A stretch of DNA of 37,226 bases from an uncultured Bacteroidaceae bacterium (GTDB lineage: Bacteria; Bacteroidota; Bacteroidia; Bacteroidales; GCA-2748055): assembly GCA_964583445.1 (NCBI GenBank), contig CAZOXI010000002.1:1-37226 (forward strand), read 5' to 3'. Each line of letters opens with the position of its first letter. Positions within the stretch are counted from its first letter, which is position 1. The notes beneath the pieces are model-generated. The model was given only the letters and a program-made list of their open reading frames with translations, was not told the origin of the DNA and ran no database searches. Of this stretch, positions 3,901-20,850 are shown one piece after another. A program made the position numbers and the translations under genes.

Positions 3901-4988
3901 TTTCCATAGGCATACAGAACCAACACATCTCCATCACGTGCAAGTATATGCGCAGAGTCCTCTGAAGCATTATCAGCAAGATCACTATCCAGAATGTAGT
4001 CCCAGCTCATTCCATCACCGAGTGTCAGGTCGTGAATGATCGAGTCTCCCCCCTGGGTGCCCCAGGGAACTGCCATGGTTCCGGCGGCAAGATCGATATC
4101 ATAGAGCCCGGATGCAGCACTAATGCTATAATCACCATGGTTGCCTATCGTATAAGGATGTTTTGCCCATGCGTCTGCCACATTGTGTGGCATTAAAATC
4201 CATTCAGAATCTTCCGCACTGGTTCCCCTGGAAACATCAAAATCAATATTGCCTTTTGTTACATTGTTTTTTCTGACCAAAGAAAAGTTATTAGCCGCAT
4301 TGTCCACACCGGCAATCGCTATATTATTGAAAGATGCTCTGCTTTCATCATCAAGTACCGTTGAATTGAATACGTCAATAACAAAGGAGTCATTGGGAGG
4401 AAAATACCACAGACAATGACCGCCAATAGTATTCATCCAAAACAGATCGTAATAGGGCACGATTGAATCAATTCCAAAGGCCAGCACTTCCGGCTTATTT
4501 ACAAATTCGCCTGATGGGTTAAAGATTCCTTCACTAGCTAAAACCGGAAAATCTGTAAATTTGATCTTAGCTTCATTATTACCAAGGGTCATGTGTGTAT
4601 ATGGATATGGCAACCCGTTATATATGGCACGGTGGGAATCGGTAAAAGGAGCAATCACGAATGATTCTCCGGCTTCAAGTATACCGCTTAACTTTGTTCT
4701 CATTTCCGGATGTGTTGTCCAGGAACCCCTGCTGGCACTGATTACCAACTTTGTTTTATTGCCATTCTCATCAAAGCTGTAATTAAAATGGCTTCTCCCG
4801 TTGCCATTCACGGCAGTAATCCCGAATTGGGAAAGATTCAATGCTGTATCTCCAACATTCGTAATTTCAAGCCAGCCTGCAATATTGTTCATACTGACTT
4901 CGCTAATGATCAGCCTGGGTATAGTGTCTTGCGACCAGACCGCCAGAGTCATCATTAGTAGTGTTAACAGTGTAGTAATTCTTCTCAT
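993..4988 (-). CDS. Large secreted T9SS cargo protein (1331 aa) with two lamin-tail-domain (LTD) modules, cadherin-like/Ig-like beta-sandwich repeats and a type-A Por C-terminal sorting domain
   Basis: The signal peptide is MRRITTLLTLLMMTLAVWSQ. LTD signature 1 is LIISEVSMNNIAGWLEITNVGDTALNLSQF and signature 2 is FISEIQVRWHWANDMMEIYNPSDVDLDLSRYLILG. A cadherin-like beta-sandwich stretch reads DLLSITW...ISYTITLPFGTRTVPALVA...TTIHVTSEDDSVTNAYKVLF. The last ~75 aa (MYPNPANGEVHMRL...AGVYFVRLESGENIITGKLHITK) are a classic T9SS CTD. I recognise no catalytic motif. Confidence 0.9.
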   Translation of the reverse strand: MRRITTLLTLLMMTLAVWSQDTIPRLIISEVSMNNIAGWLEITNVGDTALNLSQFGITAVNGNGRSHFNYSFDENGNKTKLVISASRGSWTTHPEMRTKLSGILEAGESFVIAPFTDSHRAIYNGLPYPYTHMTLGNNEAKIKFTDFPVLASEGIFNPSGEFVNKPEVLAFGIDSIVPYYDLFWMNTIGGHCLWYFPPNDSFVIDVFNSTVLDDESRASFNNIAIAGVDNAANNFSLVRKNNVTKGNIDFDVSRGTSAEDSEWILMPHNVADAWAKHPYTIGNHGDYSISAASGLYDIDLAAGTMAVPWGTQGGDSIIHDLTLGDGMSWDYILDSDLADNASEDSAHILARDGDVLVLYAYGNDLEEVSLTISVDEPAANIARVYPKRRRTYDADGLQTGWTTDYMVSEGIPGKDSIWFVPFGTRVDTLRKYLEKAPEANWEMVWVDGVERADVKHGDILRVTSEDETVTRDYVLSVMDYEPSDNADLLSITWPDYPEDELLDWIRGDTLPDFSSGRISYTITLPFGTRTVPALVAKPQSLGAMVNIQPATNLFGSAAERTTTIHVTSEDDSVTNAYKVLFNVDIPPEERQAFIGEPFISEIQVRWHWANDMMEIYNPSDVDLDLSRYLILGSGATTPAAALAEEMGRDSVSNWRDRYKKYVPGYVYPDFSEFLAKGWVLKFDPKVNPIVKPHETFDMSMQGNPVHKPDRFQPDVAARTEADFSRNLDWTNNTWDDGDWNAPLAHPMNRDFKKWIFKILNDSVLNGTKEVGIDPEDYELVDCYGWLSGAPWNIGVGQDTVDVSGMTKWLWRKPSVYQGVTELEADLSLNADSCGWMATSTAIEGYGMAQFPRALDDFGNHSADPVTAHLSKVTSLVYKVSTGYQGLQSIQGDMTTTTLTEFMGKVDKSHEDQVLEVHSATDGAVRAAEDNVAGGDTLHVTSANGENQTAYLLVNNPLDGDAVLEPVDGTTITVEIDGSTGTIGGLKYGQTISSVLDSLIVPDLATLNVVDADGHILPLQVLNYDTVYVKTLVSDQVYFKVVAEDKTTILYQMAPPSLSSDAYVVSNLFEVDQDNSWISNIPEGVTPASFIKEIIPVKGAEVKVLDKLGNERTMGVMFIDDRLFVVSEDGTNSKTYFLNFLNETSFETNQAPSVTLAFTDTTINTGTVLAVSVLVEDDGNPVPPELSFHWEVEASEGDAGSVTIGDASQMATEVTFAERGTFILKAIADDGDKTTMELINVIVQWPVGIEEATGPSMLMYPNPANGEVHMRLSNLGNRVEISIIDILGQVVYQQQHFNTEVTLDISEIKAGVYFVRLESGENIITGKLHITK

Positions 4989-5497: not shown

Positions 5498-7792
5498 ATG
5501 CTGACAAAACTGATGAATAGATTGTTGCTCTTAACATTACTTCTATTATTCAACGGTTGTAAAGACATTTACGATCAGGCGAAATATAATCCTCCCGACT
5601 GGTTGGCAGGAAAGGTTTTTGTACAAGTATCGGAACAGGATAATCTGACCCTGTTCACGGAGTGTTTGCGCAGGGTGGGAATGGATACAATCCTGGATGT
5701 ATCTGGCAGCTTTACTGTATTTGCCCCCTCTGATGAAGCCATGAATCAGTACCTGTCCGAGAATGGATATCAGGATGTAAGTGACATACCAAAAGAGGTA
5801 GTTGACCCAATCGTAAAATACCATATTATCCAGAATGCCTGGAGCAGGAACCAACTGCAGAAACTGGATTTGGATGGCTGGATTGATCCACGGGATCCGA
5901 AAAGCAAACCAAGGGCTTATAAAAGGCAAACCCTTTTGAAAAACTCAAATGAGAAATACTGGGTCACAACCCAAAACCAGGAGGAAGTGATCCTGGCTGA
6001 TTCTGCAAATGCGAAGCAATACAAGAAGGTATATACCCGATCCCGTAAATATGTTCCCATCTTTTTTGACGAATTCTTCGAGGTTTTTGATCTTTCACCG
6101 CAAGATTACAGCTTCTATTTTAACAGGGACTATCAACCGGGTAATATTTATTATGCAGGTGCCAGGATAACCCAGGATGAAATATTTGCTGAAAATGGTT
6201 TTGTATATGTAATCGACAAAGTGGTAAAACCCATGCTGAACGCCAAAGAAATGTTGGAAAGAAAAAATCCAGGAGAGTCATACCAAACCTTCCTGAATCT
6301 GATTTACCAGTTCCCCGATTTCAGATCAAACCTGCAAGCGACTTTTAACCAGCAAGATGCCAGGGAAGGAAAGCTATTTGATACGCTTTTTAATCTCAGC
6401 TTTCCTATGCTTCCTTTTGATATTCATGAAGAATTGACCGGACCGAACCTGAATAATTCCAATTACACCTACTTATATCATAATGGTGTATATGTTCCAA
6501 CGGATGAAGCTTTTCAATCCTTTCTTAACGACGTAGTGTTGTCTACCTCTGGTTTGCCTCACTGGAACAGCTTTGAAGATTTACCTGGTCGCGTAAAGCA
6601 AATCATTGTCCAGTCACACTTTGCCACTACCCCCGTTTATCCTTCAGATATGAGTGGGGGATTTGAGGATGCTAACGGAAGTATTATCTACATTGATGAG
6701 TCGGACATTATCAGAAAAGAGTTTGGCAGCAACTGTACCTTTTTGGGCCTCAATAAGACCATCGCACCCCGGGCACTTACCAGCATTGCAGCACCGGTAT
6801 ATCTCAGGCCCGGTTATTCGATTTTCATCTATGCAATTGAGTATTCGAAAGTATTGAATGCCCTTACCAAGCGCAATAAGGAGTATTGCTTTTTCCCGAT
6901 CCCTGACCAAGTATTGGAATTGGACTCATCACTGCTCATTAACTGGGTCGACCGCGAACGTGAGATATATCGTTTCAGAGCTTTAAACAGGGCCGACATG
7001 TTAATGACAGGAATGTCCGCCTCCGAACTTGGTAAGCGGATTCTGAACCAGGTAGGAACTTCTTTGCCCACGGGAAGTGCCGACAAGGAGTTTATCGAAA
7101 CCCTCGGCGGGAAACTGATTATCTGGAACAACCTGGATAATACTGTGCAGGGAAGTGCTGCCAACGTTTTCGGTTACAAGGGCGATTCCATCATTAAGGT
7201 AAACCCCGTTCTCTTGGAAGAACCTACTGATAACGGGATAACTTACAGCGTAAATTCATGGTTTAGTCACACATCGGGTGATATGTATGCCAGAATCTCC
7301 AGATATTCAAAGTTTCGCAGCCTGATGCAAAAAGCAGGTATGTTTGACCCAAAAACTTTCAGGTTTCCTTTCCTCACCGAGGGAGAGTTCTATACAATAT
7401 TCATTCCCTCAACTGAAGCCATGGAGAATTACGGAGTGGATTCGCTTTCCATTGAGGATCTCACTGCGTTCATACGGTTTCATTTTGTTAAGGGCGAAAA
7501 GATATTTACCGACAACAAGAAAGCCTGGAAGGATTACGAAACTTTAAGGGTAGATGAATCCTCCACTACATTCAATACATACTACTCTACCCTCAACATA
7601 CGGCCGGGCAGGGATGTAATCGATATACTTGATGAAGACGGGAACCCGTACGTAACAATTCACGAAACTTCAGGAAAAAACAACATCCCTATCTTTTATG
7701 ATACTGATAAATCGCCGGACAGTAATTCCGAAACGGATATGATCATAACTGCCGTTGCACATGAAATTGATACTGTTCTAATCAAACAATAA
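5498..7792 (+). CDS. Fasciclin (FAS1) multi-domain lipoprotein, 3-4 FAS1 repeats (FAS1a)
   Basis: The track ORF starts at 5363, but a lipoprotein signal MLTKLMNRLLLLTLLLLFNGC begins at the ATG at 5498 (alternative ATG at 5513). FAS1 H1-type motifs are FTVFAPSDEAMNQY, VYVPTDEAFQSF, YTIFIPSTEAMENY and a degenerate YCFFPIPDQV. YH-type motifs are IVKYHIIQN and FIRFHFVKG. The C-terminus AHEIDTVLI is a typical FAS1 end. Confidence 0.85.
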   Translation: MLTKLMNRLLLLTLLLLFNGCKDIYDQAKYNPPDWLAGKVFVQVSEQDNLTLFTECLRRVGMDTILDVSGSFTVFAPSDEAMNQYLSENGYQDVSDIPKEVVDPIVKYHIIQNAWSRNQLQKLDLDGWIDPRDPKSKPRAYKRQTLLKNSNEKYWVTTQNQEEVILADSANAKQYKKVYTRSRKYVPIFFDEFFEVFDLSPQDYSFYFNRDYQPGNIYYAGARITQDEIFAENGFVYVIDKVVKPMLNAKEMLERKNPGESYQTFLNLIYQFPDFRSNLQATFNQQDAREGKLFDTLFNLSFPMLPFDIHEELTGPNLNNSNYTYLYHNGVYVPTDEAFQSFLNDVVLSTSGLPHWNSFEDLPGRVKQIIVQSHFATTPVYPSDMSGGFEDANGSIIYIDESDIIRKEFGSNCTFLGLNKTIAPRALTSIAAPVYLRPGYSIFIYAIEYSKVLNALTKRNKEYCFFPIPDQVLELDSSLLINWVDREREIYRFRALNRADMLMTGMSASELGKRILNQVGTSLPTGSADKEFIETLGGKLIIWNNLDNTVQGSAANVFGYKGDSIIKVNPVLLEEPTDNGITYSVNSWFSHTSGDMYARISRYSKFRSLMQKAGMFDPKTFRFPFLTEGEFYTIFIPSTEAMENYGVDSLSIEDLTAFIRFHFVKGEKIFTDNKKAWKDYETLRVDESSTTFNTYYSTLNIRPGRDVIDILDEDGNPYVTIHETSGKNNIPIFYDTDKSPDSNSETDMIITAVAHEIDTVLIKQ

Positions 7793-7807
7793 CCCTACAT
7801 TAGTTAT

Positions 7808-10800
7808 ATGAAAACAGGGAAAATTATAGCCGCATTTATCTTTCTGATCCTCGTTTGTATCGAAAGTCAGGCTCAGAACAAAGTCGTTTTGAGAGGAAAT
7901 GTTAAAGACGCAAAGACCGGTGAACTTCTGATCGGTGTGAATGTAATCGAATATGATAAAGACAGGAGAATCGTTGGTGGAACCATTACAGATGTGAATG
8001 GAAACTATGTATTGAATGTGACCAACTCTGATGCAATTATCAGTTTCAGTGTAATAGGTTACACGGCAAAGGAATTTCCGCTGCAAGACAGAACCACATT
8101 AAATGTTGAGCTGGAATCTGAAAGCTATGATCTTGAAGAGATTGTCATTACTGCAAAATCCACTGCTGACCCATTGACTGGAATTGCTGATAGGAATATG
8201 GCCAGTTCAAGGGTAAAGGTCGATATGTCAGAAATGAGTCATCTCGGGGCGGTCTCGGCCGAAGAGGCGCTGGTCGGCAAGGTTACCGGTTTGGATATCA
8301 TGTCACTTTCCGGCGATCCGGGGAGCGGCTCGTCCCTCGTGATCAGGGGATTGGGTTCATTGGGTAATGCCAGGCCGCTGATTGTAATTGACGGTGTGCC
8401 GCAAACAATATCTATCAGTTCTGATTTTACATTTACCTCTGCAGATATGGAAGATATCGGCGATCTGGTCAATATAGCTCCACAGGATATCAAATCCATT
8501 GAGGTATTGAAAGATGCCGGATCAACGGCTCAGTGGGGTTCCAAAGGAGCTGATGGTGTCCTTCAGATCGAAACTTTCAGGGGCAGGAAAGGAAAGACCA
8601 GATTCGACTACCAGGGCAAATATACACTGAATTACCAGCCCCCACCCATTCCGATGCTTAACGGAAACGAGTATATTATGCTTCAACTGGAGGAGTGGCA
8701 TAATGCCCAGGGGATATTTGAATTGCCTCCGGAGATAGCTTTTGACCCTACATTCATCGATTTTTACAACTATAACAAAAATACCGACTGGGTAGATGCC
8801 GTCACCCAGAATGGTTTTATTAATGAACAGTCTTTCAGACTATCGGGTGGTGGTGAAAAAACCAGATACTATGCATCCCTGAACCTACACGACAATGTAG
8901 GAACAACCATCAATACCGGACTACAAAGGATTACCACAAGGATAAACCTGGATTACAATGTCTCCACTAAACTTCGTTTTTCTATTGAGTTTAGTTATAC
9001 CGACACTCACAGGGATAATAACTACGAGTTTCGTGTGGCTGACGAAGTGTCTGGCAGGATCAAGAATACCAATATCAGGGAAATGGCCTACAGAAAGGCC
9101 CCTAATATGAGCATTTATGAATATGATAACCAGGGAAGGCTCACCGGTGAGTTTTTCACCCCTATCTATAGCTACCAGGGAACAGGTACGGACTATTTTA
9201 ATCCGGTTGCCGTAGGCGAATTAAGTAGCAATGATATGCAGGAATACCGGGTTATGAACAACTATTCCCTGCACTATAACATATTTCCATGGGTCAGGTT
9301 CCAGCAACTGATATCATTCCAGTACTTAAATAAGAATGTTGCCAGCTTCCTCCCTTACAACGCAATTGGAGCCGATTGGTTAAATTCAAAAAATAACGAG
9401 ACTTTTGAACGAGACCAAACAATTACTCAGATCATTACACGAACTCAACTCTTCTTTAATCCCAGAATCAACTCAAATCATGTGATCAACGGAAGTCTGA
9501 TGTTCGAAACTGACCAGCAACTTAATGAATTTGTCGCCGTTGGCGGACGAAATGGTCCGAGTGTTGCTATTCAGGATCCGGCTGCCGGTTTGCCAGTCAA
9601 CTTAATCAATTCCAAATTAGAGGAAACACATGTCCTGGGTTCTTTTGCCAGCATCAGTTATGTCTTGATGGACCGTTATATTCTCCAGGGAAATCTTCGT
9701 GCAGATGCCAGTTCCAGGTTTGGAAGCAATAGCCGCTGGGGTTTATTTCCAAGTTTCGGGGCAGCATGGAGATTCTCCAGCGAGCCATTCATGGATGGTT
9801 TTAAACTACTTTCTGATGGAAAAATCAATTATAGTTATGGACTGGCAGGGAAACAACCTGGGGGTGCATATGACCGGCATGGTATTTATAATACACCGCG
9901 AATACCCCAATATATCCAGAATCCCATCGTGGTGCAGGAACAGATACAACTGGCCAATCTCAAATGGCAAACCGTATACTCGCACAATTTAAAGCTAGAC
10001 CTGGGATTTATGGAGGACCGGTTCACAATTGTCGGCGAACTCTATAAAAAAATCACTAAAGACTTACTCTGGAAGAATTACAAGATACCCAAATCGTCGG
10101 GATACCCAACTCTGAATTGGTTTAACGGGGGAAGTGTTGAGAACAAGGGTTGGGAACTGGCCCTCTATGCCAATCCTGTCAGGACAAACAATACAAGCGT
10201 CAATCTTAATTTTAATATCTCCAGAAACATCAATTCATTCCTTGAATTTCCGGATAACTTTAACACTGAGCGGGACCAGAATATAGGGAATTATCAATAC
10301 CCAAGAAGGGCCAAATTGGGTGAGCCGGTTGGCTCTTTTTATGGATTTAATTATCTGGGCGTATGGCCATCTGATGACGCGGTTATTGCAACAAACGAGG
10401 ATGATAATCCTCTGCTCGATGTAAACGGCGATCACATTCCACTAACGTATAAAGGCACCTATATTTTTCAGGGTGGTGACGCCAACTATGAAGACCGAAA
10501 TCACGATGGAGTTATAGATATTTACGATGTGATCAACCTGGGAGATTCCAACCCTGATTTCATTGGTGGATTTGGAAGCAATATCGGCTGGAAGAATTAC
10601 AGGGTATCCATGCAGTGGTATTACCGGACCGGATTCATGATCGTCAATGAGATTGCCATGAGAACTGAAGGGATGCTTGGAAGAGATAACCAGAGTAAAG
10701 CCGTTCTGCATCGCTGGCGGTCGCAGGGACAGGATGCGGAGGATATCATTCCTCGTGCCTACCTGAATCACCCGGCCAATAACCTGGGATCAAACCGCTA

Positions 10801-11056
10801 CGTCGAGCCCGGTGATTTTTTAAGACTTGTCAATCTTACTCTTTCTTATAAATTACCTAAGGAGGTATGCAACAGGATTCGTGTGCGTACCATAGATATG
10901 GCATTTACCATGAGAAGGATTCTTACTTTGACGAATTATAGTGGTCAGGATCCGGAAGTCCCCCAAATCGTCCGCGATCCCTTCTGGTTCGGGACGGACA
11001 ACGCCCGAACCCCGCCACCCAAAGAATTTACCTTAAGCATTGCTGTCGGATTCTAA
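7808..11056 (+). CDS. SusC/RagA-family TonB-dependent outer-membrane transporter (SusC1)
   Basis: It has a signal peptide, then a carboxypeptidase-regulatory-like N-terminal domain (VLRGNVKDAKTGELLIGVNV...TDVNGNYVL). The TonB-box region is LEEIVITA. Plug motifs are SLVIRGLGSLGNARPLIVIDGVP and IKSIEVLKDAGSTAQWGSKGADGVLQIET. It also has the NKNTDW motif and ends in a terminal F. There is no STN/anti-sigma signalling domain. Confidence 0.95.
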   Translation: MKTGKIIAAFIFLILVCIESQAQNKVVLRGNVKDAKTGELLIGVNVIEYDKDRRIVGGTITDVNGNYVLNVTNSDAIISFSVIGYTAKEFPLQDRTTLNVELESESYDLEEIVITAKSTADPLTGIADRNMASSRVKVDMSEMSHLGAVSAEEALVGKVTGLDIMSLSGDPGSGSSLVIRGLGSLGNARPLIVIDGVPQTISISSDFTFTSADMEDIGDLVNIAPQDIKSIEVLKDAGSTAQWGSKGADGVLQIETFRGRKGKTRFDYQGKYTLNYQPPPIPMLNGNEYIMLQLEEWHNAQGIFELPPEIAFDPTFIDFYNYNKNTDWVDAVTQNGFINEQSFRLSGGGEKTRYYASLNLHDNVGTTINTGLQRITTRINLDYNVSTKLRFSIEFSYTDTHRDNNYEFRVADEVSGRIKNTNIREMAYRKAPNMSIYEYDNQGRLTGEFFTPIYSYQGTGTDYFNPVAVGELSSNDMQEYRVMNNYSLHYNIFPWVRFQQLISFQYLNKNVASFLPYNAIGADWLNSKNNETFERDQTITQIITRTQLFFNPRINSNHVINGSLMFETDQQLNEFVAVGGRNGPSVAIQDPAAGLPVNLINSKLEETHVLGSFASISYVLMDRYILQGNLRADASSRFGSNSRWGLFPSFGAAWRFSSEPFMDGFKLLSDGKINYSYGLAGKQPGGAYDRHGIYNTPRIPQYIQNPIVVQEQIQLANLKWQTVYSHNLKLDLGFMEDRFTIVGELYKKITKDLLWKNYKIPKSSGYPTLNWFNGGSVENKGWELALYANPVRTNNTSVNLNFNISRNINSFLEFPDNFNTERDQNIGNYQYPRRAKLGEPVGSFYGFNYLGVWPSDDAVIATNEDDNPLLDVNGDHIPLTYKGTYIFQGGDANYEDRNHDGVIDIYDVINLGDSNPDFIGGFGSNIGWKNYRVSMQWYYRTGFMIVNEIAMRTEGMLGRDNQSKAVLHRWRSQGQDAEDIIPRAYLNHPANNLGSNRYVEPGDFLRLVNLTLSYKLPKEVCNRIRVRTIDMAFTMRRILTLTNYSGQDPEVPQIVRDPFWFGTDNARTPPPKEFTLSIAVGF

Positions 11057-11067
11057 AAAATTAATCA

Positions 11068-12540
11068 ATGAAATTAAGAAAAATAGTCAGTTTATTATTT
11101 ATAGTTCTTCCTTTGCTAATCTCATCAGGATGCAATGACTGGCTGGAATTGGCTCCTCCGGATGGACTGGTAAAGGATGAATACTGGAAATCAAAAGAAG
11201 ATATTGAGGCGGTACTAATGGGAGCATACCAACAATTCGCCCAATTGGATGAACGTCTTTTTCTCTATGGTGAATTGCGGGGCGATTTATTGACCGATGA
11301 TAGCAATACACCAGGATATCAACGTTTGATAATGGAGGCGAATATCTACCCGGACAACGCCCTGTGCGACTGGAACGATTTTTACCTGGTGATTAACTAT
11401 TGTAATTTAGTGCTGAAATATATCCCCATCATCCAGGAGACCGACCAGACTTTTTCAAATATTCAGAGCCTGGGATTTGAAGCGGAGGCTTTGTATCTGC
11501 GCGGACTGGCCTATTTTTACCTGGTCAGAATTTGGAAAGAGGTCCCCCTTATCCTTGACGCATCTGAAGAGGATGATGTCGATTTCTATTTGCCAAAAAG
11601 CACTGAAGAGGAGGTACTCACCGCTATAGAAGAAGATTTAAAAAGAACCCTCGGATTTGTTACTGATGAATACGGAACCCTGGAACAAAACAAGGGAAGG
11701 GCCAACAGAGGGGCCATCCTGGCTCTCCTGGCCGACATCAATCTCTGGCAGTATGAGTACGATGAAGTGATCGATTATGTTGAACGAATCGAAGATTTGG
11801 AATATTTCCTGCTCCCCGCTGCGCAATGGTTTGATAATTTTTTTCCGGGTAATTCACTCTCAAGCATATTTGAATTCCAATTTAACAGTAGCCTGGAGCA
11901 GCCTTCTGACCTCTTTTTTTACACATATTTCAATATCGGTTATTATAAAGCCAGTGAAACGGCTTTGGAATTATTGGCCCCTGAACGTTCCGGTGAAATA
12001 TACAGGGGTCGCGGTTCTCTGCGCGGAACCGACGGCGCAATCTGGAAATACTGCGGTAGTGCTCCTGATGAACAAACCCTGCGACCCAGTTCCGAAACCA
12101 GAGATGCCAACTGGATCGTTTATCGTTACGCAGATGTTCTGCTAATGAAGGCAGAAGCCTTATCCCAAACAGGAAGATATCAGGATGCTCTCACCATCAT
12201 TAACGAAATCAGGACCCAGGCATTGGTCAGCCCTTTAAGTTTGGATGAGACAGCCGAGGCCTTTGAAAATGCAATCATGGATGAACGCGTCAGGGAACTG
12301 GCTTTCGAGGGAAAAAGATGGTTCGATCTGGTCAGGCTGGGCCGCAGGAACAATTATGCCAGGAAAAATTACCTGATTGAGATCATTATTGACAAAGTAC
12401 CATCCACCCAAAAATTAGTGCTTGCTACAAAACTAACGGATCCTTTCAGCTGGTTCCTTCCTATTCAGGAAGATGAACTTGAAAGAAACAACCAACTTGT
12501 GCAGAATCCGTATTATGCTGTTTTTTCAGATGAAAATTAA
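11068..12540 (+). CDS. SusD/RagB-family outer-membrane lipoprotein (SusD1)
   Basis: The lipobox is LLISSGC. The SusD N-terminal pattern is WLELAPPDGLVKDEYWKSKEDIEAVLMGAYQQF. TPR-like core motifs are RGLAYFYLVRIW and LLMKAEAL. The C-terminal ERVRELAFEGKRWFDLVR is diagnostic. It starts 11 nt after SusC1. Confidence 0.93.
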   Translation: MKLRKIVSLLFIVLPLLISSGCNDWLELAPPDGLVKDEYWKSKEDIEAVLMGAYQQFAQLDERLFLYGELRGDLLTDDSNTPGYQRLIMEANIYPDNALCDWNDFYLVINYCNLVLKYIPIIQETDQTFSNIQSLGFEAEALYLRGLAYFYLVRIWKEVPLILDASEEDDVDFYLPKSTEEEVLTAIEEDLKRTLGFVTDEYGTLEQNKGRANRGAILALLADINLWQYEYDEVIDYVERIEDLEYFLLPAAQWFDNFFPGNSLSSIFEFQFNSSLEQPSDLFFYTYFNIGYYKASETALELLAPERSGEIYRGRGSLRGTDGAIWKYCGSAPDEQTLRPSSETRDANWIVYRYADVLLMKAEALSQTGRYQDALTIINEIRTQALVSPLSLDETAEAFENAIMDERVRELAFEGKRWFDLVRLGRRNNYARKNYLIEIIIDKVPSTQKLVLATKLTDPFSWFLPIQEDELERNNQLVQNPYYAVFSDEN

Positions 12541-14146
12541 AAAACATAACATGATCAAAATAACACCTTTAATTTTTGTTGGAATCGCATTTCTTTGGAG
12601 TTGCATCGATCCTGTCGAAGCACCAGAAGCTTTCGTTGATGAGGATATCTTCCTCATCGCAGACTACATTGAGGACCATCAGGATACATATTCAAAATTT
12701 TACAGAGTGATGATCGAGGGAGATTTAATAGATCCCCTGAGTGCCTACAACCCTTTCGGAAATGGGTTTACACTTTTTCTTCCGACCGATGAAGCCTTTG
12801 ACAGGTATATCCAGAACAACGATTCCTATTCCAGTTTTGAAGCGCTTATTGAGGACAAGGAATTCGTGAGAGTCCTGGGAAGATACCACCTGGTGAATAT
12901 AGGATTGAAATCGAATGAATTTCCTTATGGTGCACTCCCCGACACAACTGCAACAGGCGATGTCCTGACCATCGGATTTAGCACCAGCTTCGATTCCACT
13001 ATCTACAAGGTAAACAATGTAGCCTCAGTAACACAGCCCAACCTTGAGATGGTCAACGGTTACATCCACGAAATATCGGAAGTACTAAAGCCCATCAATT
13101 TTCCTGGAGTTGAGTGGCTTCAGAACGAAGATGGATACTCCATTCTGAGCGGAGCGCTTACTTTGGCAGGAATTACCGATACATTAGGGATTTATCGCAC
13201 CACAGGACCGGGTCAGGTGATCCGAAACAAATATACAATTCTTGCGGAACACGACAGTATATTCCAGAGGAATGGAATCCAGTCTGTGGATGACCTGTTG
13301 GAAAGATATAATACGCCAGGGCTCACTCCCGATGATCCGGATAACCAGTTTTTCCAGTTTGCCGCCTATCATGTGCTTGAAGGTGATTACTTCCTGGTTG
13401 ACTTTGAGGTCACCCGAAACTATAACACATATGCCAGTGCACCTGTAAGGATTCAAACAGGACTGGAATTAAGACTGAATCCCGGGGTGGACACATTCAG
13501 ATTAGAGATTTCCGAAATGGGTGACACCACAGCGATCAGACATATTGGTCTTTTCTACCAGGAAAGCGATATCAACTCCAAGACAGGCCCTATCCATCTT
13601 ATTGATCAGGTATTGGAGTATTATATCCCCCCGACCTCAGAACAAATCTTCCAGTTTTATGAGGCTCCCCCGATCAACAATCTAAGAAATACACAGGGAA
13701 CCCATGATTTACTTAAGGTTGATCAGGATGATTTAGAGGTGATTACCTTTACCGGACCGGACGAGATCATCTATTATAAAACTACGTCCAATTCTGAAAA
13801 TGCTTTTAGTAAAGATTATATTCAGATTAATGGTAATTTCACTATCAGTTATACCATTCCGAAAATTCTTCCCGGCAAATACAAGGTTTATCTCAGGGCA
13901 CACGGTTTTAATCGAAACGATGAAAATGCCACGATCCTTGTATTCATGGACGGGAAACAGTTGGGAGGCTCAATTAACCTGAACAGTGGAGGTTTAGCCA
14001 ATAATCCTTATAACGTAAATAACCAACTCGGTTATTTGGTAGGAGGAGTTGAATTTTCAAATTATAAGGAACATACAGTGACCGTCGAATCCTTTATTCC
14101 CGGGAGGTTCATCTGGGATTACATCAGATTCGTACCTGATAAATAG
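12530..14146 (+). CDS. FAS1-domain lipoprotein with a C-terminal CBM-like beta-sandwich (FAS1b)
   Basis: The lipoprotein signal is MKIKKHNMIKITPLIFVGIAFLWSC, from the ATG at 12530, which overlaps the SusD1 stop; an alternative ATG is at 12551. FAS1 motif pairs are FTLFLPTDEAFDRY with VLGRYHLVN, and YTILAEHDSIF with FAAYHVLEG. The ~115-aa C-terminal module ends in WDYIRFVP. Confidence 0.85.
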   Translation: MKIKKHNMIKITPLIFVGIAFLWSCIDPVEAPEAFVDEDIFLIADYIEDHQDTYSKFYRVMIEGDLIDPLSAYNPFGNGFTLFLPTDEAFDRYIQNNDSYSSFEALIEDKEFVRVLGRYHLVNIGLKSNEFPYGALPDTTATGDVLTIGFSTSFDSTIYKVNNVASVTQPNLEMVNGYIHEISEVLKPINFPGVEWLQNEDGYSILSGALTLAGITDTLGIYRTTGPGQVIRNKYTILAEHDSIFQRNGIQSVDDLLERYNTPGLTPDDPDNQFFQFAAYHVLEGDYFLVDFEVTRNYNTYASAPVRIQTGLELRLNPGVDTFRLEISEMGDTTAIRHIGLFYQESDINSKTGPIHLIDQVLEYYIPPTSEQIFQFYEAPPINNLRNTQGTHDLLKVDQDDLEVITFTGPDEIIYYKTTSNSENAFSKDYIQINGNFTISYTIPKILPGKYKVYLRAHGFNRNDENATILVFMDGKQLGGSINLNSGGLANNPYNVNNQLGYLVGGVEFSNYKEHTVTVESFIPGRFIWDYIRFVPDK

Positions 14147-14174
14147 ATAACATGTTTTAAATGGTATATTGCAA

Positions 14175-15734
14175 ATGAAAAGAACAATGAAGCATAAGAG
14201 TTTGCTAGTGGCATTGAGTTTGCTTGTTGCTTGCAGCTGCAATCCGCCGGATTGGGACGAGCATTATAATAACCCTCCTGCGAGTGTCAATATGAAACTC
14301 TGGGATGCAGTGAAAGCTGAATCGAACTATTCCGAATTCACATCCCTGATCAGTTCCTATAATTTGGACACTCTGTTTAATAAAAATCAGTCGTACACCC
14401 TGTTTATTCCCAACAATGATGCAATTTCACAGCTAACTCCTGAGGATACCAGTGGAATCATGCGTCAGATCTTGCTCTACCATATTTCCAATACCGTTTT
14501 CCTGCCAAGGAACGTCAAAGGTTTCAGAAAACTACAGAATCTGACAAATAAGTATGTAGGGGTGGAAAAACTTCCCGGGTATTTCAGCTATGACCTGATC
14601 CCCATTGAATACAGCAGTCCGCTCTATCTTGACGGGGTATATCACGAGCTTAGCCAACCTGCCCAGCCCAGACCAAACCTCTATGAGTTCACTGAGAGGT
14701 TTAGCTCCGTTATCAGGGATTATATCGATCTGACCGACTCGGTATATCTGGATAAATCGAACAGCAAGCCGCTCGGATTCGATGATTCAGGCAATACTAT
14801 ATATGATTCCGTATTTAATAGAATTAACCGTTTTGAGCGTGACTACTTCCCTGTGAGTCAGGAAAGCAGGAACAAAACTGCAACATTTGTACTCTTTACA
14901 CAGGAGCAGTATATCGAAGCCCTGAATGAAATGGGGCAAATTCTGGGTGGTTCTTTCAACAATTTCGAAGATATCCCCGAAATCTGGCAATTCCAGACCC
15001 TTTTACCTGCCTTGATGGAGAACAGCCTGTATGAAAACAATCTTGAATACACTGATTTCCGGGATACCATGATTAGTGTAACAGGAGACACAGTCTATAT
15101 TGAACCGGGAAATATTGATCCTGAATCTAAATTCCTTTGCAGTAACGGGGTAACCTATACCTATCTCGATTTTAAAGTCCCGGAATATCTTTACAAAGGC
15201 GAACAACGCATAGAGGGTGAAGATCTCCTCGACTCGATTGGTCCAAGCATCTGGGCCTGGAAACCTGATATTAAGATTGATGGTATCACAGTGCGGCCAA
15301 GTCGTGAATCTCTTACTGAAGCCTCTGAAGGTTTTCTTGCCAGTGTCTCTTTTCCCACTCGTAATTTCCTGGAGGAGTGGAGCATCACATTCAAGTTCAA
15401 AAACATCTTTCCCATGCGCTACAGACTGGAATGGGGAGCGAGTTTCAGACCATCAGGCAATTACTCGATCTACGTAAATGGTGAAATTCTGGAATATAGC
15501 GACAGGTATGGTCGACCTCAGACGATATTCGACACCGATGAACTGAGTTTGGTAACCAGGTCCGTCACAGGAGATAAGTTTGTGCCCGTAGGAAACGTAA
15601 ACAAAAGAGATTACTGGGTGGAGAATATTACCGAATTTGGCGATGTTGAAATAAAGATTTTGTACACCGGACCTGGATCAAAAGATTTAAACGGTTTCAG
15701 CCTCGACTACGTAAGCCTTTTCCCGGCTGAATAA
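14175..15734 (+). CDS. FAS1-domain lipoprotein with a C-terminal CBM-like beta-sandwich (FAS1c)
   Basis: The track ORF begins at a TTG (14169). The ATG at 14175 gives MKRTMKHKSLLVALSLLVACSC, a lipobox signal. FAS1 motifs are YTLFIPNNDAISQL and ILLYHISN. The C-terminal module (WSITFKFKNIFPMRYRLEW...LDYVSLFP) is homologous to the FAS1b tail. Confidence 0.85.
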   Translation: MKRTMKHKSLLVALSLLVACSCNPPDWDEHYNNPPASVNMKLWDAVKAESNYSEFTSLISSYNLDTLFNKNQSYTLFIPNNDAISQLTPEDTSGIMRQILLYHISNTVFLPRNVKGFRKLQNLTNKYVGVEKLPGYFSYDLIPIEYSSPLYLDGVYHELSQPAQPRPNLYEFTERFSSVIRDYIDLTDSVYLDKSNSKPLGFDDSGNTIYDSVFNRINRFERDYFPVSQESRNKTATFVLFTQEQYIEALNEMGQILGGSFNNFEDIPEIWQFQTLLPALMENSLYENNLEYTDFRDTMISVTGDTVYIEPGNIDPESKFLCSNGVTYTYLDFKVPEYLYKGEQRIEGEDLLDSIGPSIWAWKPDIKIDGITVRPSRESLTEASEGFLASVSFPTRNFLEEWSITFKFKNIFPMRYRLEWGASFRPSGNYSIYVNGEILEYSDRYGRPQTIFDTDELSLVTRSVTGDKFVPVGNVNKRDYWVENITEFGDVEIKILYTGPGSKDLNGFSLDYVSLFPAE

Positions 15735-15755
15735 TTGTATACAACACCTTATCTT

Positions 15756-18700
15756 ATGAATAGTAATAAAATAAATCAGGTAAAATACTTTTTAATTTGG
15801 CTTCTGTGTTTTGTAAGCTTAACTTTTTTAAGTAACCGAACATATGGACAGGATTCACTGCGCGTAACTGGAACCGTAAAGGGTGATTCAGGAGAACCGG
15901 TGGAAGGCGTTTCTGTGAGTGTGGAGGGAGTATTGGGGACTCCTGCAGTTACGGATGAAAATGGTCAATTCCAAGTCACAACTCCTGGAGGTGATGCATG
16001 GATTATGATCAACCCCGTGGATACATACAAGAGTAAGCGCATTTATCTGAATAACAGAAAAAGTCTGATTCTACAGCTTACACCGATCGACATGGAATCA
16101 GGATACGATCTGATCAATGACCAGTTCGGTCCCAAACTTAGAAGGGACTTTGTTGGTGCTTTCAGTGCTCAGGACCCTAAAGGGTCAAGGCACTACCCCA
16201 ATCAGACTGTTGACCAGTTCTTTCAAAACAAGATCCCAGGTCTGTGGGCTACTGTACAGTCCGGAATGCCCCTCTCCGGGACCACAACATTCCTTAGAGG
16301 CATCCGCTCTATGCATACCACAAGTCAGCCATTGTATATCGTAGACGGTCTTCCGCTGGAGGCTCCTGGAATGTTTCAATCAAATCTTTCGGGTTATGAT
16401 TATAACCCGCTCTCCACCCTTGAACCCAATGATATTACTAATATTACCATCCTCAAAGATTACCTTGGCAGCTCACATTACGGTGTAAGGGGATCCAATG
16501 GAGTGGTGCTGATTGAAACATTGAAACCCACCGAACTCCAAACAACCATTAATTTTTCATATCGCACTGGCTTTAGTCTTCAACCCGACAGGATACCCCA
16601 GCTTAACAGCGATCAATATAAAACATTCGCCAATGAAGTATTGATGTCTTCAGGACTATATGAAGAAAACTACACCAGGGAGTTTTTCCAACTCTTTGCC
16701 ACGGAGAATGATCCGGAGTATTTTAAGTATAATAAGAATACCAACTGGCAGGATTATATTTTCCGGGATGCACTTATGAATGATTTTTTTCTGAACGTGA
16801 TGGGTGGTGATGAAATCGCGCGGTATGGATTATCATTTAGCTATCTTAAATACGAGGGAATTATCAAAGATACCGATGCAAGTCGTGTAAACGCCAGGTT
16901 TGTGGGATCTTTTAATATTTTCGATTGGTTAAGGATGTACATCAGTACAAACCTGAGTACCAACAATGCTTCACTCAATGAATCGGTGCTCTCTGAGAAA
17001 ACCAGTCCCATACTCACCTCCCTGTTCAAGGCACCGATCCTCTATCCTTTTCAATTTGATGAAGACGGACAGGAGCTTAGTGTTGTTGAGCATGTGAACT
17101 CCCTTGGAATAAGTAATCCGGTTTCCATAATCGATAAGTTTGAAGGATCGAACAAGAACTACCGTTTTACAACATCCTTCAAAGTGGAAGGGGATCTATG
17201 GCAGGACCACCTGAAATGGACCTCTATGTTGGGAATAAACCTCAACTCTCTGACTGAAAGTATTTTTATGCCAAACACCGGAATGGAACTCTATTATAAT
17301 GATGAGGCATGGAATGTCATTAAAAAAATGAATAATAATTTTTATTCAATTTATTCAGACAACTTTATCACTTTTAATCATAGCATTAATGAAAAGCATT
17401 TGATTAATGCTGCAGCTGGAGTTCGTATTCATCAGAATTCTTTAGATATCGACTGGGGAATTGCAAAAAATGCGCATGAAAAAGATGAATACAGACAATT
17501 GCAGGATGGCACCTCTTTTCTTAGAGAGATGGGAGGTGATGATGCTAATTGGAACCGCCTGGGATCCTATGCCAATGCTTCTTACAGCTATCTGAACAGA
17601 TACATAATGGAAGCAGGGCTTGTGGGCGAATTCTCCTCAAGAGTCGGAAAAAATGCCCAGGATATGTTCCTGATAGGAGAGATACCCTTCGGCATTTTTT
17701 ATTCTGCAGGTGTCGCCTGGAGAATCAGCTCAGAGCAATTCATGAAAAATATATACTGGCTTGAAGAACTTAAGTTAAGATTTACTTACGGGGAGGCGGG
17801 CAACGATGATATTGGAAACCTCGCGGGCCTTGATTATTATACTGCGGATCACTACAGGGAAACCTCTGCTATGATTCCGGGGATTTTAATAGACCAGTCA
17901 ATAAAGTTCGAGCGTAATAAGCAGGTCAATGCAGGCATTGATCTTAGTCTTTTTAGTGATAGAATTTCCCTGACCGCCGACTGGTTCAATATCAAGACAG
18001 AGGATATGTTTGTTTATGAACCGCAACCAACCTTTATGGGATTTGATTTGATTCCCACAAATAATGGTGAACTTTCGAACCGGGGATGGGAGTTGAGTTT
18101 TTATTCTCGCATCTTTAATTTAAAAAAACTTAAGGTAGATATCTCTTTGCAATTGGCCGGATTTCAAAACAGGGTTGAATCCATTAAAAATGATGCAGTA
18201 GTTACTCCATTCCCAGGAGGATACTTCATTTCCCGCATAGGTGAGCCAGTACTCAGTTTTTACGGATACAACTACTTGGGTATCTATTCAACCGAAGCGG
18301 AAGCGGAAAATGAAGGACTGGTGAATGGAAAAGGGATTGCTTTCGGATCTGGAGATGCACGTTTCGAGGATATTTCAGGCCCAGAGGGAATACCCGATGG
18401 GGTTATCAATGAATTGGACAGGATCAACCTGGGATCACCTATTCCTAAGTTGTATGGAGGAGCAACTACCACGTTCAGTTACGGCAGATGGTCCGTTAGT
18501 GCAAATCTTCAGATTGTAACAGGCCAAAAAGTATTCAATTATGTCCGGTATGAGAATGAGAAAATGACTGATCTTTCCAACCAGAGTACCCATACGCTTT
18601 CACGCTGGACTTATGAAGGCCAAAAGACCAATGTTCCGAGGGCTTTATATAACGATCCGATCGGTAATAGCGAATTCTCTTCCCGCTGGATTGAAGATGG

Positions 18701-18932
18701 ATCCTACATGAGAATCAAGTATTTAACATTGTCATACAGCATACCCCAGAAGTTATGGCTATTAAGAAATCTGGAGGTTTTTGCTACAGCAACAAATCTT
18801 TATACGTTTACTAAATATCTTGGGTATGACCCCGAATTCAGCTTTTCCTACTCCATTCTTGAACAAGGTATAGATTATGGGTTTATGCCGCATACACAAA
18901 GCTATATCCTGGGAGTCAGGATTGGCCTATAA
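15756..18932 (+). CDS. SusC/RagA-family TonB-dependent outer-membrane transporter (SusC2)
   Basis: The track ORF starts at TTG 15735, but the ATG at 15756 gives MNSNKINQVKYFLIWLLCFVSLTFLSNRTYGQ. The carboxypeptidase-regulatory-like domain reads LRVTGTVKGDSGEPVEGVSVSV...DENGQFQV. Plug motifs are TFLRGIRSMHTTSQPLYIVDGLPL and ITILKDYLGSSHYGVRGSNGVVLIETLK. It also carries the NKNTNW motif. Confidence 0.93.
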   Translation: MNSNKINQVKYFLIWLLCFVSLTFLSNRTYGQDSLRVTGTVKGDSGEPVEGVSVSVEGVLGTPAVTDENGQFQVTTPGGDAWIMINPVDTYKSKRIYLNNRKSLILQLTPIDMESGYDLINDQFGPKLRRDFVGAFSAQDPKGSRHYPNQTVDQFFQNKIPGLWATVQSGMPLSGTTTFLRGIRSMHTTSQPLYIVDGLPLEAPGMFQSNLSGYDYNPLSTLEPNDITNITILKDYLGSSHYGVRGSNGVVLIETLKPTELQTTINFSYRTGFSLQPDRIPQLNSDQYKTFANEVLMSSGLYEENYTREFFQLFATENDPEYFKYNKNTNWQDYIFRDALMNDFFLNVMGGDEIARYGLSFSYLKYEGIIKDTDASRVNARFVGSFNIFDWLRMYISTNLSTNNASLNESVLSEKTSPILTSLFKAPILYPFQFDEDGQELSVVEHVNSLGISNPVSIIDKFEGSNKNYRFTTSFKVEGDLWQDHLKWTSMLGINLNSLTESIFMPNTGMELYYNDEAWNVIKKMNNNFYSIYSDNFITFNHSINEKHLINAAAGVRIHQNSLDIDWGIAKNAHEKDEYRQLQDGTSFLREMGGDDANWNRLGSYANASYSYLNRYIMEAGLVGEFSSRVGKNAQDMFLIGEIPFGIFYSAGVAWRISSEQFMKNIYWLEELKLRFTYGEAGNDDIGNLAGLDYYTADHYRETSAMIPGILIDQSIKFERNKQVNAGIDLSLFSDRISLTADWFNIKTEDMFVYEPQPTFMGFDLIPTNNGELSNRGWELSFYSRIFNLKKLKVDISLQLAGFQNRVESIKNDAVVTPFPGGYFISRIGEPVLSFYGYNYLGIYSTEAEAENEGLVNGKGIAFGSGDARFEDISGPEGIPDGVINELDRINLGSPIPKLYGGATTTFSYGRWSVSANLQIVTGQKVFNYVRYENEKMTDLSNQSTHTLSRWTYEGQKTNVPRALYNDPIGNSEFSSRWIEDGSYMRIKYLTLSYSIPQKLWLLRNLEVFATATNLYTFTKYLGYDPEFSFSYSILEQGIDYGFMPHTQSYILGVRIGL

Positions 18933-18945
18933 ATCAGGAAAACTT

Positions 18946-20850
18946 ATGAAAACTAAAGAGCAAATAAACAATACAATCAAAATTTACATTCCAATCTTAT
19001 TCATGGCTGTAATGCTATTTTCAACATCATGTGAGAACTTTTTCGATCCCGAACAGGAACTTGTGCTTGAAACAGAGAACTTTTATAAAGACTGGAGCGA
19101 ATACCGTTCCGCTGAAATGGGCCTCTATGCATTGCAGCAGAATCTAGTTGACCAGATTGTAATATTGGGAGAACTCAGGGCAGATCTTTTAGAGATTACC
19201 CCTAATGCAGACAAAGATTTAATTGAAGTGTACAATTTTCAAATAACCAGAGAGAATAAGTTTGCATCTCCGGTTAACTTCTACAAGCTTATCGGAGCAT
19301 GTAACAAATTGATCAACAAGCTTGAATCCTCACACCCTGAGGTGCTTTCCGAAGAGGATCCAACTGATTATGACAGGCTTTATGGGGAAGCAAAATGCAT
19401 GCGGGCATGGGCCTATTTCAATGCAGTACGGATATATGGTAAAATTCCCTATATCTGGCCGTCTCTTACGTCAGCCTCTGAGATCAATGATTATGTAAAC
19501 TCTACAATTGTTTATATCGACTCTGTTGATATCAAGTTTCACCCCGGGGGGTATTTTAATGATACCATTTTTAATACGCCTGATACGCTTAACAGGATTT
19601 TCTTAGACCTTGACCAGGTGGTCGACACTTTCACCGTCGAACTGGAAAGGGATATAAAGGCAGTAGGAGTTATCCACAATAAGGATAATTTTGATGCAAC
19701 CTGGGATGTAACTATCTGGACATATTACGCTTATAAATGTCTCCTGGGCCAAATGTATTTGTATCAGGGAGACTATGTAAATGCGGAAAAGCATTTCAGA
19801 CCGATCCTGTACAATACTGATTCTGAAACCAATGCTATAAAATACGGCCTTGATAACAGATTCGCCTATAATAGTTGGAAAAATATTTTTGCCGGATTGG
19901 ATAGTTATGAGCATATCTTAACCCTTTGGTTTGGTAAGTCATACCAACAGCAACACAATCTGCAGCGATACTTTGACAAAGAATTGCCCAATCAGTATAT
20001 GATCAAACCAACTACTATTGCAGTGCACAACTGGGAAACACAGTGGGAAGGAATGCGTTATCCTCGAAACATTATAGATCCGAATAATGTGGAAATGAGA
20101 AGTATAGGAACACCTGGAGATCTTTATCGTGGCCATGGTATATCTTACGCTTATTTTAAAGGGTCTTCGGTTCTGACTCAAGGCACTGTAAGGGATATGT
20201 TAGATTTTAAGAGACAGCAGCTTCCAAAAGATGTCGAAAGGATAATGAGTGGAGTAGACACGATGGTCTATAAATACACTTATGGCAAGCAACCCTATGA
20301 TCAGGATGCCAATTTTATAATTTACAGAGCCGCCGGTATTCATCTATATATGGCAGAGATATCTGCAAGGTGGGAATGGGATCATTCGGATGATGGTTCC
20401 GGCAGCAATATCATTCCTGAACTGAATTTGGGATTAAAGATTATTAATAATGGGAATTATTCCACAAATCCCAATAGACAATTAGGGGTCAGGGGCCGGG
20501 TTGGATTTGGAGGAGAAGATTTACATCAGGACAGGGAAAATGATGATATTATTGTTGCTGGCAGAATTTACATTCATGATCTGTTTACAAATGAGGTTAT
20601 CGGATACGAGGATTATCCAACTTTAGCAGAAAAACAAGACTATTTTGAGAATGAAATAATGGAGGAGCGGGCCAGGGAACTTGCATTTGAAGGTGATCGG
20701 TTCTTCGATCTTATCAGGATCGCTAAGCGAAGAAATGACCCATCCTACCTGGCAGATAAGGTAGCCCAAAAATTCCGCGGGGCAAGACGGGAACAAATCC
20801 GTACACTCCTGATGGATGAAAATAACTGGTATGTTCCGTTTTATGAATAA
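18946..20850 (+). CDS. SusD/RagB-family outer-membrane lipoprotein (SusD2)
   Basis: The ATG at 18946 gives MKTKEQINNTIKIYIPILFMAVMLFSTSC, a lipobox signal. SusD motifs are RAWAYFNAVRIYGKIPY and, near the C-terminus, EERARELAFEGDRFFDLIR. It starts 13 nt after SusC2. Confidence 0.9.
   Translation: MKTKEQINNTIKIYIPILFMAVMLFSTSCENFFDPEQELVLETENFYKDWSEYRSAEMGLYALQQNLVDQIVILGELRADLLEITPNADKDLIEVYNFQITRENKFASPVNFYKLIGACNKLINKLESSHPEVLSEEDPTDYDRLYGEAKCMRAWAYFNAVRIYGKIPYIWPSLTSASEINDYVNSTIVYIDSVDIKFHPGGYFNDTIFNTPDTLNRIFLDLDQVVDTFTVELERDIKAVGVIHNKDNFDATWDVTIWTYYAYKCLLGQMYLYQGDYVNAEKHFRPILYNTDSETNAIKYGLDNRFAYNSWKNIFAGLDSYEHILTLWFGKSYQQQHNLQRYFDKELPNQYMIKPTTIAVHNWETQWEGMRYPRNIIDPNNVEMRSIGTPGDLYRGHGISYAYFKGSSVLTQGTVRDMLDFKRQQLPKDVERIMSGVDTMVYKYTYGKQPYDQDANFIIYRAAGIHLYMAEISARWEWDHSDDGSGSNIIPELNLGLKIINNGNYSTNPNRQLGVRGRVGFGGEDLHQDRENDDIIVAGRIYIHDLFTNEVIGYEDYPTLAEKQDYFENEIMEERARELAFEGDRFFDLIRIAKRRNDPSYLADKVAQKFRGARREQIRTLLMDENNWYVPFYE

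Follow-up and report, generated by a model that had tools for sequence, protein, structure and literature searches.

A conserved seven-gene cassette with two SusC/SusD pairs and fasciclin-domain lipoproteins, probably the glycan uptake core of a Bacteroidales polysaccharide utilization locus

Contig CAZOXI010000002.1 of assembly GCA_964583445.1, from an uncultured Bacteroidaceae bacterium, carries a run of seven genes coding for three lipoproteins with fasciclin (FAS1) domains and for two pairs of a SusC/RagA TonB-dependent transporter and a SusD-family lipoprotein (SusCD). The whole stretch analyzed, 37,226 nt from position 1 of the forward strand, is called the window here. All seven genes lie on the plus strand, at 5498-20850, in the order FAS1a-SusC1-SusD1-FAS1b-FAS1c-SusC2-SusD2, and we refer to their positions in this order as slots 1 to 7 of the cassette.

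FAS1a, 5498..7792, plus strand: lipoprotein of 764 aa with four tandem FAS1 domains (PF02469, E 8e-24)
SusC1, 7808..11056, plus strand: SusC/RagA TonB-dependent transporter of 1082 aa (TIGR04056, 644 bits; Plug, CarboxypepD_reg)
SusD1, 11068..12540, plus strand: SusD-family lipoprotein of 490 aa (PF07980, E 2e-33; PF14322, E 3e-20), with lipobox SSGC followed by NDWLE
FAS1b, 12551..14146, plus strand: lipoprotein of 531 aa that occupies the SusE position and consists of two FAS1 domains plus a C-terminal beta-sandwich
FAS1c, 14175..15734, plus strand: lipoprotein of 519 aa that occupies the SusF position and consists of two FAS1 domains (PF02469, E 9e-10) plus a predicted C-terminal beta-sandwich resembling carbohydrate-binding module (CBM) families 6 and 35
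SusC2, 15756..18932, plus strand: second SusC/RagA transporter (TIGR04056, 593 bits)
SusD2, 18946..20850, plus strand: unusually long SusD-family lipoprotein of 634 aa (PF07980, 44 bits; PF14322, 36 bits), the last gene of the cassette

Gene starts were picked from the listing of open reading frames (ORFs) and their translations to fit signal peptides and homologues. With these starts the intergenic gaps are, in order, 15, 11, 10, 28, 21 and 13 nt, the fifth falling to 0 if SusC2 is read from the TTG at 15735 that opens its ORF, although the ATG at 15756 is the likelier start. An initial annotation of this DNA had described seven co-directional genes at most 28 nt apart, as we found, with one possible 11-nt overlap; overlap between genes of the run arises solely with the further-upstream ATGs at 12473 and 18877. 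All seven products passed Pfam or NCBIfam thresholds, and the FAS1, SusC and SusD domains that had been read from the letters were recovered by profile scans: PF02469 gave 84.7, 74.7 and 39.3 bits in the three FAS1 proteins (gathering cut-off 22 bits); TIGR04056 gave 644 and 593 bits in SusC1 and SusC2 (cut-off 368 bits), both of which also have a Plug and an N-terminal CarboxypepD_reg-like domain; and PF07980 and PF14322 both exceeded their cut-offs in SusD1 and SusD2. The same scans found no carbohydrate-active enzyme (CAZyme) domain in any of the seven proteins. The earlier description of an operon with no enzyme is consequently right for the run, but not for the window, which also holds a hybrid two-component system regulator (HTCS), a family 3 glycoside hydrolase (GH), two S1 sulfatases, a beta-helix protein, a major facilitator superfamily (MFS) transporter and a type IX secretion system (T9SS) protein. 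Scans for sigma-70 promoters, terminators and the Bacteroidetes -7 motif gave matches at chance level, uninformative on operon structure, and an Rfam scan of the whole window returned no RNA family.

The three FAS1 proteins together hold eight FAS1 domains, in agreement with the earlier count of at least six to eight repeats: four in FAS1a and two in FAS1c, recognized by fold, and two in FAS1b, recognized by Pfam (PF02469 at residues 47-181 and about 195-355). An AlphaFold2 model of FAS1a, built from 33 homologues, had a predicted local distance difference test score (pLDDT) of 89.8 and a predicted TM-score of 0.81, and its best Foldseek matches were TGFBIp (5nv6) and periostin (5yjh), with E 2e-22 over about 760 columns. 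Since the model aligns end to end with these four-FAS1 proteins, FAS1a appears to consist of four enlarged FAS1 domains only, at about residues 40-245, 250-420, 430-590 and 595-760, without a CBM-like module. In the AlphaFold2 model of FAS1c (pLDDT 90.1), a FAS1 pair that matches TGFBIp, periostin and fasciclin I is followed by a C-terminal beta-sandwich at about residues 340-519. The best structures for this sandwich in the Protein Data Bank (PDB), after the FAS1 matches, were MiXBM 7ehg, CBM35 2w1w and CBM6 2cdp and 8j3x (E 2e-6 to 1e-4; target-relative TM-score 0.55-0.69), and with the ancillary modules of GH115, GH43 and GH30 enzymes that it also resembles the E-values extend to 2e-4. On the evidence of the model, we regard the module as CBM6/35-like and not as a member of either family. 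Sequence and profile searches of the PDB returned no structure of a bacterial FAS1 lipoprotein.

FAS1b and FAS1c are homologous over their full length (hhalign 98.9%, E 3e-17, 460 columns), while residues 1-413 of FAS1a align with residues 1-325 of FAS1c (hhalign 98.6%), with 29% identity over 86 aa in the N-terminal segment. These alignments indicate that FAS1b and FAS1c are full-length paralogues, and that FAS1a has just its N-terminal FAS1 pair in common with them. The NPPDW motif that the initial annotation had found in both FAS1a and FAS1c holds up in part: P33 and W35 are invariant among FAS1a homologues, where the motif shrinks to P-[DE]-W, but FAS1c homologues keep W-[DE]-x-H-Y alone and not NPP. 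The C-terminus of FAS1b gave 17-19 bits with DUF5108 (PF17133), under the gathering cut-off of 27.4 bits, so that it is not a member of this family; weak PF17133 matches were present in 4 of 40 FAS1b homologues. Several homologues of the slot-4 protein of an Odoribacter cassette described below (L092) have a precomputed PF17133 match, which is faint for P0421, the one whose locus was inspected. The kinship between FAS1b-type proteins and DUF5108 is probably distant, as judged from these scores.

All three FAS1 proteins have a lipobox cysteine with D or E within positions +2 to +6 (in FAS1a, lipobox LLFNGC followed by KDIYD), and this arrangement is kept in 67/67 FAS1a, 51/52 FAS1b and 48/50 FAS1c homologues. 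Acidic residues after the lipidated cysteine form the surface-export signal of Bacteroidota lipoproteins, and the acidic tracts of the FAS1 proteins, already remarked on in the first reading, are consistent with a signal of this kind. Furthermore, FAS1b and FAS1c are encoded directly downstream of SusD1, and with their lipobox cysteine they have both the position and the anchor of a surface glycan-binding protein (SGBP). FAS1a, upstream of SusC1, does not occupy the position of a SusE/SusF-type SGBP.

The order of these genes is conserved well beyond the window. FAS1a has 833 detectable homologues, all of about 760 aa, and a scan of one genome per species gave 221 relatives, of which the best 80 loci were inspected, their ORFs being compared with the window proteins by BLAST. 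Nearly all of these loci belong to metagenome-assembled genomes (MAGs) labelled Prolixibacteraceae, Bacteroidales, Mariniphaga, Draconibacterium or Maribellus, several of which have 2-3 copies. All six visible slots, from FAS1a to SusC2, were present in order in 47 of the 80 loci, which is 47 of the 47 Prolixibacteraceae/Bacteroidales loci of sufficient length; another 13 showed a prefix of this order that breaks off only where the contig or locus ends, and two showed minor variants of the cassette. Each slot best matches the same slot of the window, down to 39% identity in FAS1a. SusD2 is the last gene of the cassette in two loci (L085 and L086), with unrelated genes beyond it. Individual loci depart in detail: in L010, FAS1b is followed by two consecutive FAS1c-like genes, and in L050, SusC1 is in two ORFs, probably because of a frameshift. 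A Logan contig of 8118 bp (SRR7048225; L001) spans SusC1 to FAS1c, its four proteins being 100% identical in amino acids to those of the window. The nearest genome in the species-representative set, MAG SRP141376_co3_418, is 63-76% identical over the cassette proteins, and the source organism is therefore absent from that set at the species level.

The cassette was also found outside these groups. By tblastn against plasmids, the full seven genes were present four times in Fulvitalea axinellae DSM 100852 (Cytophagales), and these copies (L087-L090) lie on four different megaplasmids of this one cultured strain, pFA1, pFA2, pFA4 and pFA5. A profile run against 1.84 billion representative proteins gave 190 matches at E <= 1e-30 and led to a protein of Odoribacter splanchnicus, in whose locus (L092) all seven slots are filled, each by an orthologue of its window counterpart. 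Two further gut contigs (L093 and L094), reached through homologues of the Odoribacter slot-4 protein, have the seven-gene layout by gene length and Pfam content. Across orders the slot-for-slot arrangement persists at 23-29% identity. The adjacency of FAS1 and SusC genes, for which the initial annotation had proposed a synteny check, is thus conserved across three orders or families, and gene order and sequence together indicate that the cassette is an ancient fixed unit.

In the remaining 18 of the 80 loci FAS1a stands alone, and about 12 of these are long enough to exclude SusCD. Eleven SusCD-free loci (L004, L022, L023, L027, L031, L033, L045, L058, L066, L070 and L080) form a subfamily in which a FAS1a-like gene (about 730-740 aa, 45-50% identical) is convergently paired with a shorter FAS1b-like gene. 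As this pair has no SusC or SusD nearby, multi-FAS1 lipoproteins also exist outside transport operons. Adhesion is the classical role of the FAS1 fold, and the lipoproteins of the cassette might be adhesins by which the cell attaches to particles, to host matrix or to other cells, being co-transcribed with the transporters while feeding no ligand to them. The SusCD-free pairs fit this explanation, as do the lack of a CBM-like module in FAS1a and the fact that TGFBIp, periostin and fasciclin I, which matched best in structure, are matrix adhesion proteins. However, a slot order kept across orders at such low identity argues that function ties these proteins closely to both SusCD pairs. FAS1b and FAS1c also stand in the SusE/SusF position and have CBM6/35-like folds, and we consider a purely adhesive function unlikely.

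The two SusCD pairs of the cassette are not interchangeable. SusC1 and SusC2 are 25% identical, and the slot-2 SusC proteins of Fulvitalea score 620-750 bits against SusC1 and 300-330 bits against SusC2, whereas those of slot 6 score 520-576 bits against SusC2 and 285-345 bits against SusC1. For slot 6 in Cytophagales and Odoribacter together, the scores are 430-576 bits against the counterpart slot and 262-345 bits against the other. Since the two proteins are so divergent and each has its orthologues in the corresponding slot of both Cytophagales and Odoribacter, any duplication must be ancient. The two pairs appear from these comparisons to be non-equivalent and to predate the split, or the transfer, between the lineages that carry them. 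The initial annotation had suggested that a FAS1-SusC-SusD unit was duplicated and then diverged strongly. A recent duplication followed by fast divergence, leaving two redundant modules, would account for the presence of two SusCD pairs with a FAS1 gene before each, and for the N-terminal segment common to FAS1a and FAS1c. Nevertheless, SusC1 and SusC2 are each far closer to their positional counterparts in Cytophagales and Odoribacter than to each other, and the full-length paralogues are FAS1b and FAS1c rather than FAS1a and FAS1c. On account of the SusC divergence, the slot-specific orthology and the FAS1b/FAS1c paralogy we rejected this history, which we hold to be highly improbable.

Genes on both sides of the run place it in a degradative context.

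LTD/T9SS protein, 993..4988, minus strand, divergent upstream: secreted protein of 1331 aa with an N-terminal lamin-tail domain (LTD; PF00932) and a C-terminal T9SS sorting domain (PF18962)
Beta-helix protein, 21189..23468, minus strand: secreted, right-handed (Beta_helix, DUF1565; weak Chondroitinase_B and GH141_M)
MFS sugar transporter, 23465..24892, minus strand: inner-membrane import (PF00083, E 2e-127)
HTCS, 24970..29214, plus strand: hybrid sensor/regulator (Reg_prop, Y_Y_Y, HisKA, HATPase_c, Response_reg, HTH_AraC)
GH3, 29541..31628, minus strand: beta-glucosidase-type exo-glycosidase (GH3 N-terminal, C-terminal and Fn3-like domains)
S1 sulfatase, 32260..33702, minus strand: lipoprotein (PF00884, SGSH_C; PDB relatives at E 5e-40 from several S1 subfamilies)
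S1 sulfatase, 35082..36860, minus strand: related to GlcNAc-6-O-sulfatases (7p24, E 1e-143; 5g2v, E 1e-140)

The HTCS, the typical regulator of a polysaccharide utilization locus (PUL), lies with the GH3, the two sulfatases, the beta-helix protein and the MFS transporter within 16 kb downstream, none of them inside the seven-gene run. With two adjacent susC-like/susD-like pairs linked to a regulator and to CAZymes, the locus qualifies as a PUL, and its predicted layout is the standard one, in which the transport core would be one transcription unit and the enzymes stand on its flanks. The nearest solved relatives of the GH3 are beta-glucosidases (E 1e-140), and a GH3 85% identical to it adjoins the cassette in another locus (L005). 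The beta-helix protein, whose N-terminus resembles the GH120 xylosidase 3vst, is a candidate glycosidase or lyase. The sulfatase at 35082-36860 is closest to a mucin-desulfating sulfatase (7p24) and an N-acetylglucosamine-6-sulfatase (5g2v), and this enzyme suggests a sulfated glycan or glycoconjugate as the substrate, possibly a beta-linked glycan bearing GlcNAc-6-sulfate. In the divergent upstream protein, PF18962 (Por_Secre_tail) matches residues 1258-1329 with E 3e-15, which marks it as T9SS cargo; it may belong to a new family of surface enzymes, serve in binding, or do neither of these.

Some ORFs of this region require comment. The mechanical ORF of the HTCS, with a GTG start, probably opens upstream of the true start, and that of the 35082-36860 sulfatase, with a GTG about 70 residues before the signal peptide MKLRNRF..., is probably overextended. 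Between the two sulfatase genes, at 34267-35026 on the plus strand, three short ORFs of 85, 127 and 54 aa lie in different frames, the middle one matching the SBF transporter family (PF01758, E 5e-14); this stretch has the look of a transporter pseudogene broken by frameshifts, or else of an error in the assembly.

The enzymes that accompany the cassette vary from locus to locus. In a census of flanks, in which 150 upstream ORFs from 45 loci were clustered, the commonest neighbour was a T9SS protein with LTD and PKD domains (17-18 loci), and HTCS genes stood beside the cassette as 14 ORFs in 13 loci. The LTD/T9SS-type neighbours are about 1300 aa long; they have the lamin-tail domain at the N-terminus and also contain Ig/PKD-like repeats and the T9SS sorting domain. 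Other frequent neighbours were further T9SS proteins, including GH26-CBM35 fusions, as well as GH5 (one with CBM6), GH3, sulfatases and beta-helix proteins, and the related loci overall also carry polysaccharide lyase family 8 (PL8), GH88, GH89 and M60-like peptidases. Around the Fulvitalea copies lie genes for LamG, FN3/beta-helix and discoidin-domain proteins and for one fucosidase: a LamG-like protein precedes two of the four copies, and downstream of three there is an FN3/beta-helix protein (about 505 aa) together with a protein of about 650 aa whose C-terminal domain is a discoidin domain and whose N-terminal region is unassigned. That these discoidin proteins might be M60 peptidases like those of Odoribacter was rejected by Pfam. 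In the Odoribacter splanchnicus locus and the two gut contigs (L092-L094), one or two M60-like metallopeptidases, which also have F5/8 type C domains, are encoded immediately after the cassette, and PL8, GH89 (NAGLU) or GH88 genes lie in the flanks, a content that suggests a mucin- or proteoglycan-directed version of the cassette in a human gut commensal. Since the neighbouring enzymes differ between loci, the cassette would thus be a reusable uptake chassis joined to differing degradative sets, several of which, as judged from their predicted families, are aimed at sulfated or host-type glycoconjugates.

The initial annotation had left room for a cargo other than a glycan. Glycopeptides, proteoglycan fragments or a hydrophobic ligand might be taken up, with the FAS1 domains as binding units, and the M60-like peptidases directly after the Odoribacter-clade cassettes and the mucin-type GlcNAc-6-sulfatase homologue of the window could be read in this way; moreover, carotenoid binding is known for some FAS1 proteins, one of which, AstaP, appeared in the Foldseek results. 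The neighbouring HTCS, GH3, GH5, GH26, PL8 and GH88 genes and the CBM-like modules argue instead for carbohydrate recognition, and the window contains no peptidase. The CBM6/35-like modules and the glycan-directed regulator and enzymes weaken the earlier suggestion; such a cargo appears quite improbable as a general explanation, and glycopeptides are a possible cargo in the Odoribacter clade.

Taken together, these observations make it probable that the seven genes code for the outer-membrane glycan capture and import core of an HTCS-regulated PUL, equipped with a FAS1-based class of SGBPs, and of the proposals in the initial annotation, that of a new class of surface ligand-capture subunit is retained as the best reading. 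The bacterium that carries the locus is Prolixibacteraceae-like, from an uncultured branch of the Bacteroidales. Two non-redundant SusC/SusD pairs would import oligosaccharides, and FAS1b and FAS1c would act as surface glycan binders, in which the lipid anchor and the two FAS1 domains form a stalk that presents the distal CBM6/35-like module. FAS1a would be a third surface partner, probably a scaffold or an extended binding platform of the complex. We infer from signals, position and fold that these lipoproteins are exposed at the surface, dock onto SusCD and bind glycan. Depolymerization and the downstream steps would fall to the flanking beta-helix protein, GH3, two sulfatases, MFS transporter and T9SS LTD protein, and the cassette as a whole would be an ancient chassis reused with different enzyme sets across loci and lineages.

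Several points weigh against this interpretation. We know of no established carbohydrate-binding role for FAS1, and about 12 homologues of FAS1a have no SusCD near them, so that its fold is not necessarily linked to transport. The C-terminal fragments of FAS1b and FAS1c gave no match to CBM_6 (PF03422) or CBM_35 (PF16990), even at E <= 10, and the CBM6/35 likeness is one of fold only, with moderate TM-scores (0.55-0.69). Furthermore, segment-wise Pfam scans and a PDB search found no catalytic domain in the LTD/T9SS protein, and the cassettes of L085 and L086 have no recognizable CAZyme within 5-10 kb.

We also put forward, as a tentative extension that we think doubtful as it stands, that the seven proteins form one "double utilisome", in which two SusCDs are joined by FAS1a as a bridge or scaffold while FAS1b and FAS1c present CBM-like heads. 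Such an assembly may be specialized for complex sulfated glycoconjugates, for example mucin- or proteoglycan-like polymers. If true, it would give bacterial multi-FAS1 lipoproteins their first defined molecular function and add a new structural class of SGBP.

The accessory lipoproteins of PULs set which polymers Bacteroidota capture, and most of them are unannotated; to our knowledge, the FAS1 fold has no known role in nutrient uptake. We found no description of SGBPs of a FAS1-based class, or of the seven-gene cassette with its strictly conserved order and two SusCD pairs, although the transport logic is ordinary. The order of the cassette is kept in at least three Bacteroidota lineages, namely marine and sediment Prolixibacteraceae, sponge-associated Cytophagales and human gut Odoribacter, and genomes hold it in multiple copies that differ in their enzyme sets. 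FAS1-stalked SGBPs in a two-transporter complex are consequently a hypothesis that can be tested in culture, and the position of the Odoribacter cassette beside M60-like mucinases bears on host-glycan foraging. In the open full-text literature we found no functional study of FAS1 lipoproteins in SusCD systems or of this cassette, the sole relevant mention being in a genome paper, whose figure of a Gramella PUL includes a FAS1 gene.

Among known systems, the closest published layout that we found is the rhamnogalacturonan I (RG-I) PUL of B. thetaiotaomicron, which has the pairs BT4164/65 and BT4168/69 and the SGBP BT4167 (PMC8002723), a RefSeq DUF5108 protein lying within BT4164-69 (PMC10434189). 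The RG-I PUL (BT4164-BT4169) and the xylan Xus clusters share tandem SusCD pairs with the window cassette, and the DUF5108 tie to BT4166/BT4167, made by description only, is a lead. The B. thetaiotaomicron Sus system resembles the window in having a SusC/SusD pair followed by two paralogous surface lipoproteins with a stalk and CBM-like modules, a dedicated regulator and nearby enzymes, but its stalks are Ig-like where those here are FAS1. The window cassette also differs from Sus in its second SusCD pair, in the four-FAS1 lipoprotein encoded before the first SusC, and in having no SusG-equivalent surface enzyme lipoprotein in the operon. We know of no four-FAS1 gene upstream in the RG-I PUL or the Xus clusters. 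In the levan and dextran utilisomes and the four-component BT2261-2264 complex, SusC2D2 cores stably carry extra surface lipoproteins, SGBPs and enzymes. These utilisomes are the kind of assembly proposed here for the cassette, but they are not known to carry FAS1 proteins as accessory lipoproteins, or more than one SusCD type per complex. Outside bacteria, TGFBIp and periostin have four tandem FAS1 domains, like FAS1a, the sequence identity of these two proteins and fasciclin I to the window FAS1 proteins being 12-14%. Unlike these eukaryotic proteins, the FAS1 proteins of the window are lipid-anchored, have enlarged domains of 170-200 aa and are encoded in a nutrient-uptake operon, where FAS1b and FAS1c add a CBM-like module.

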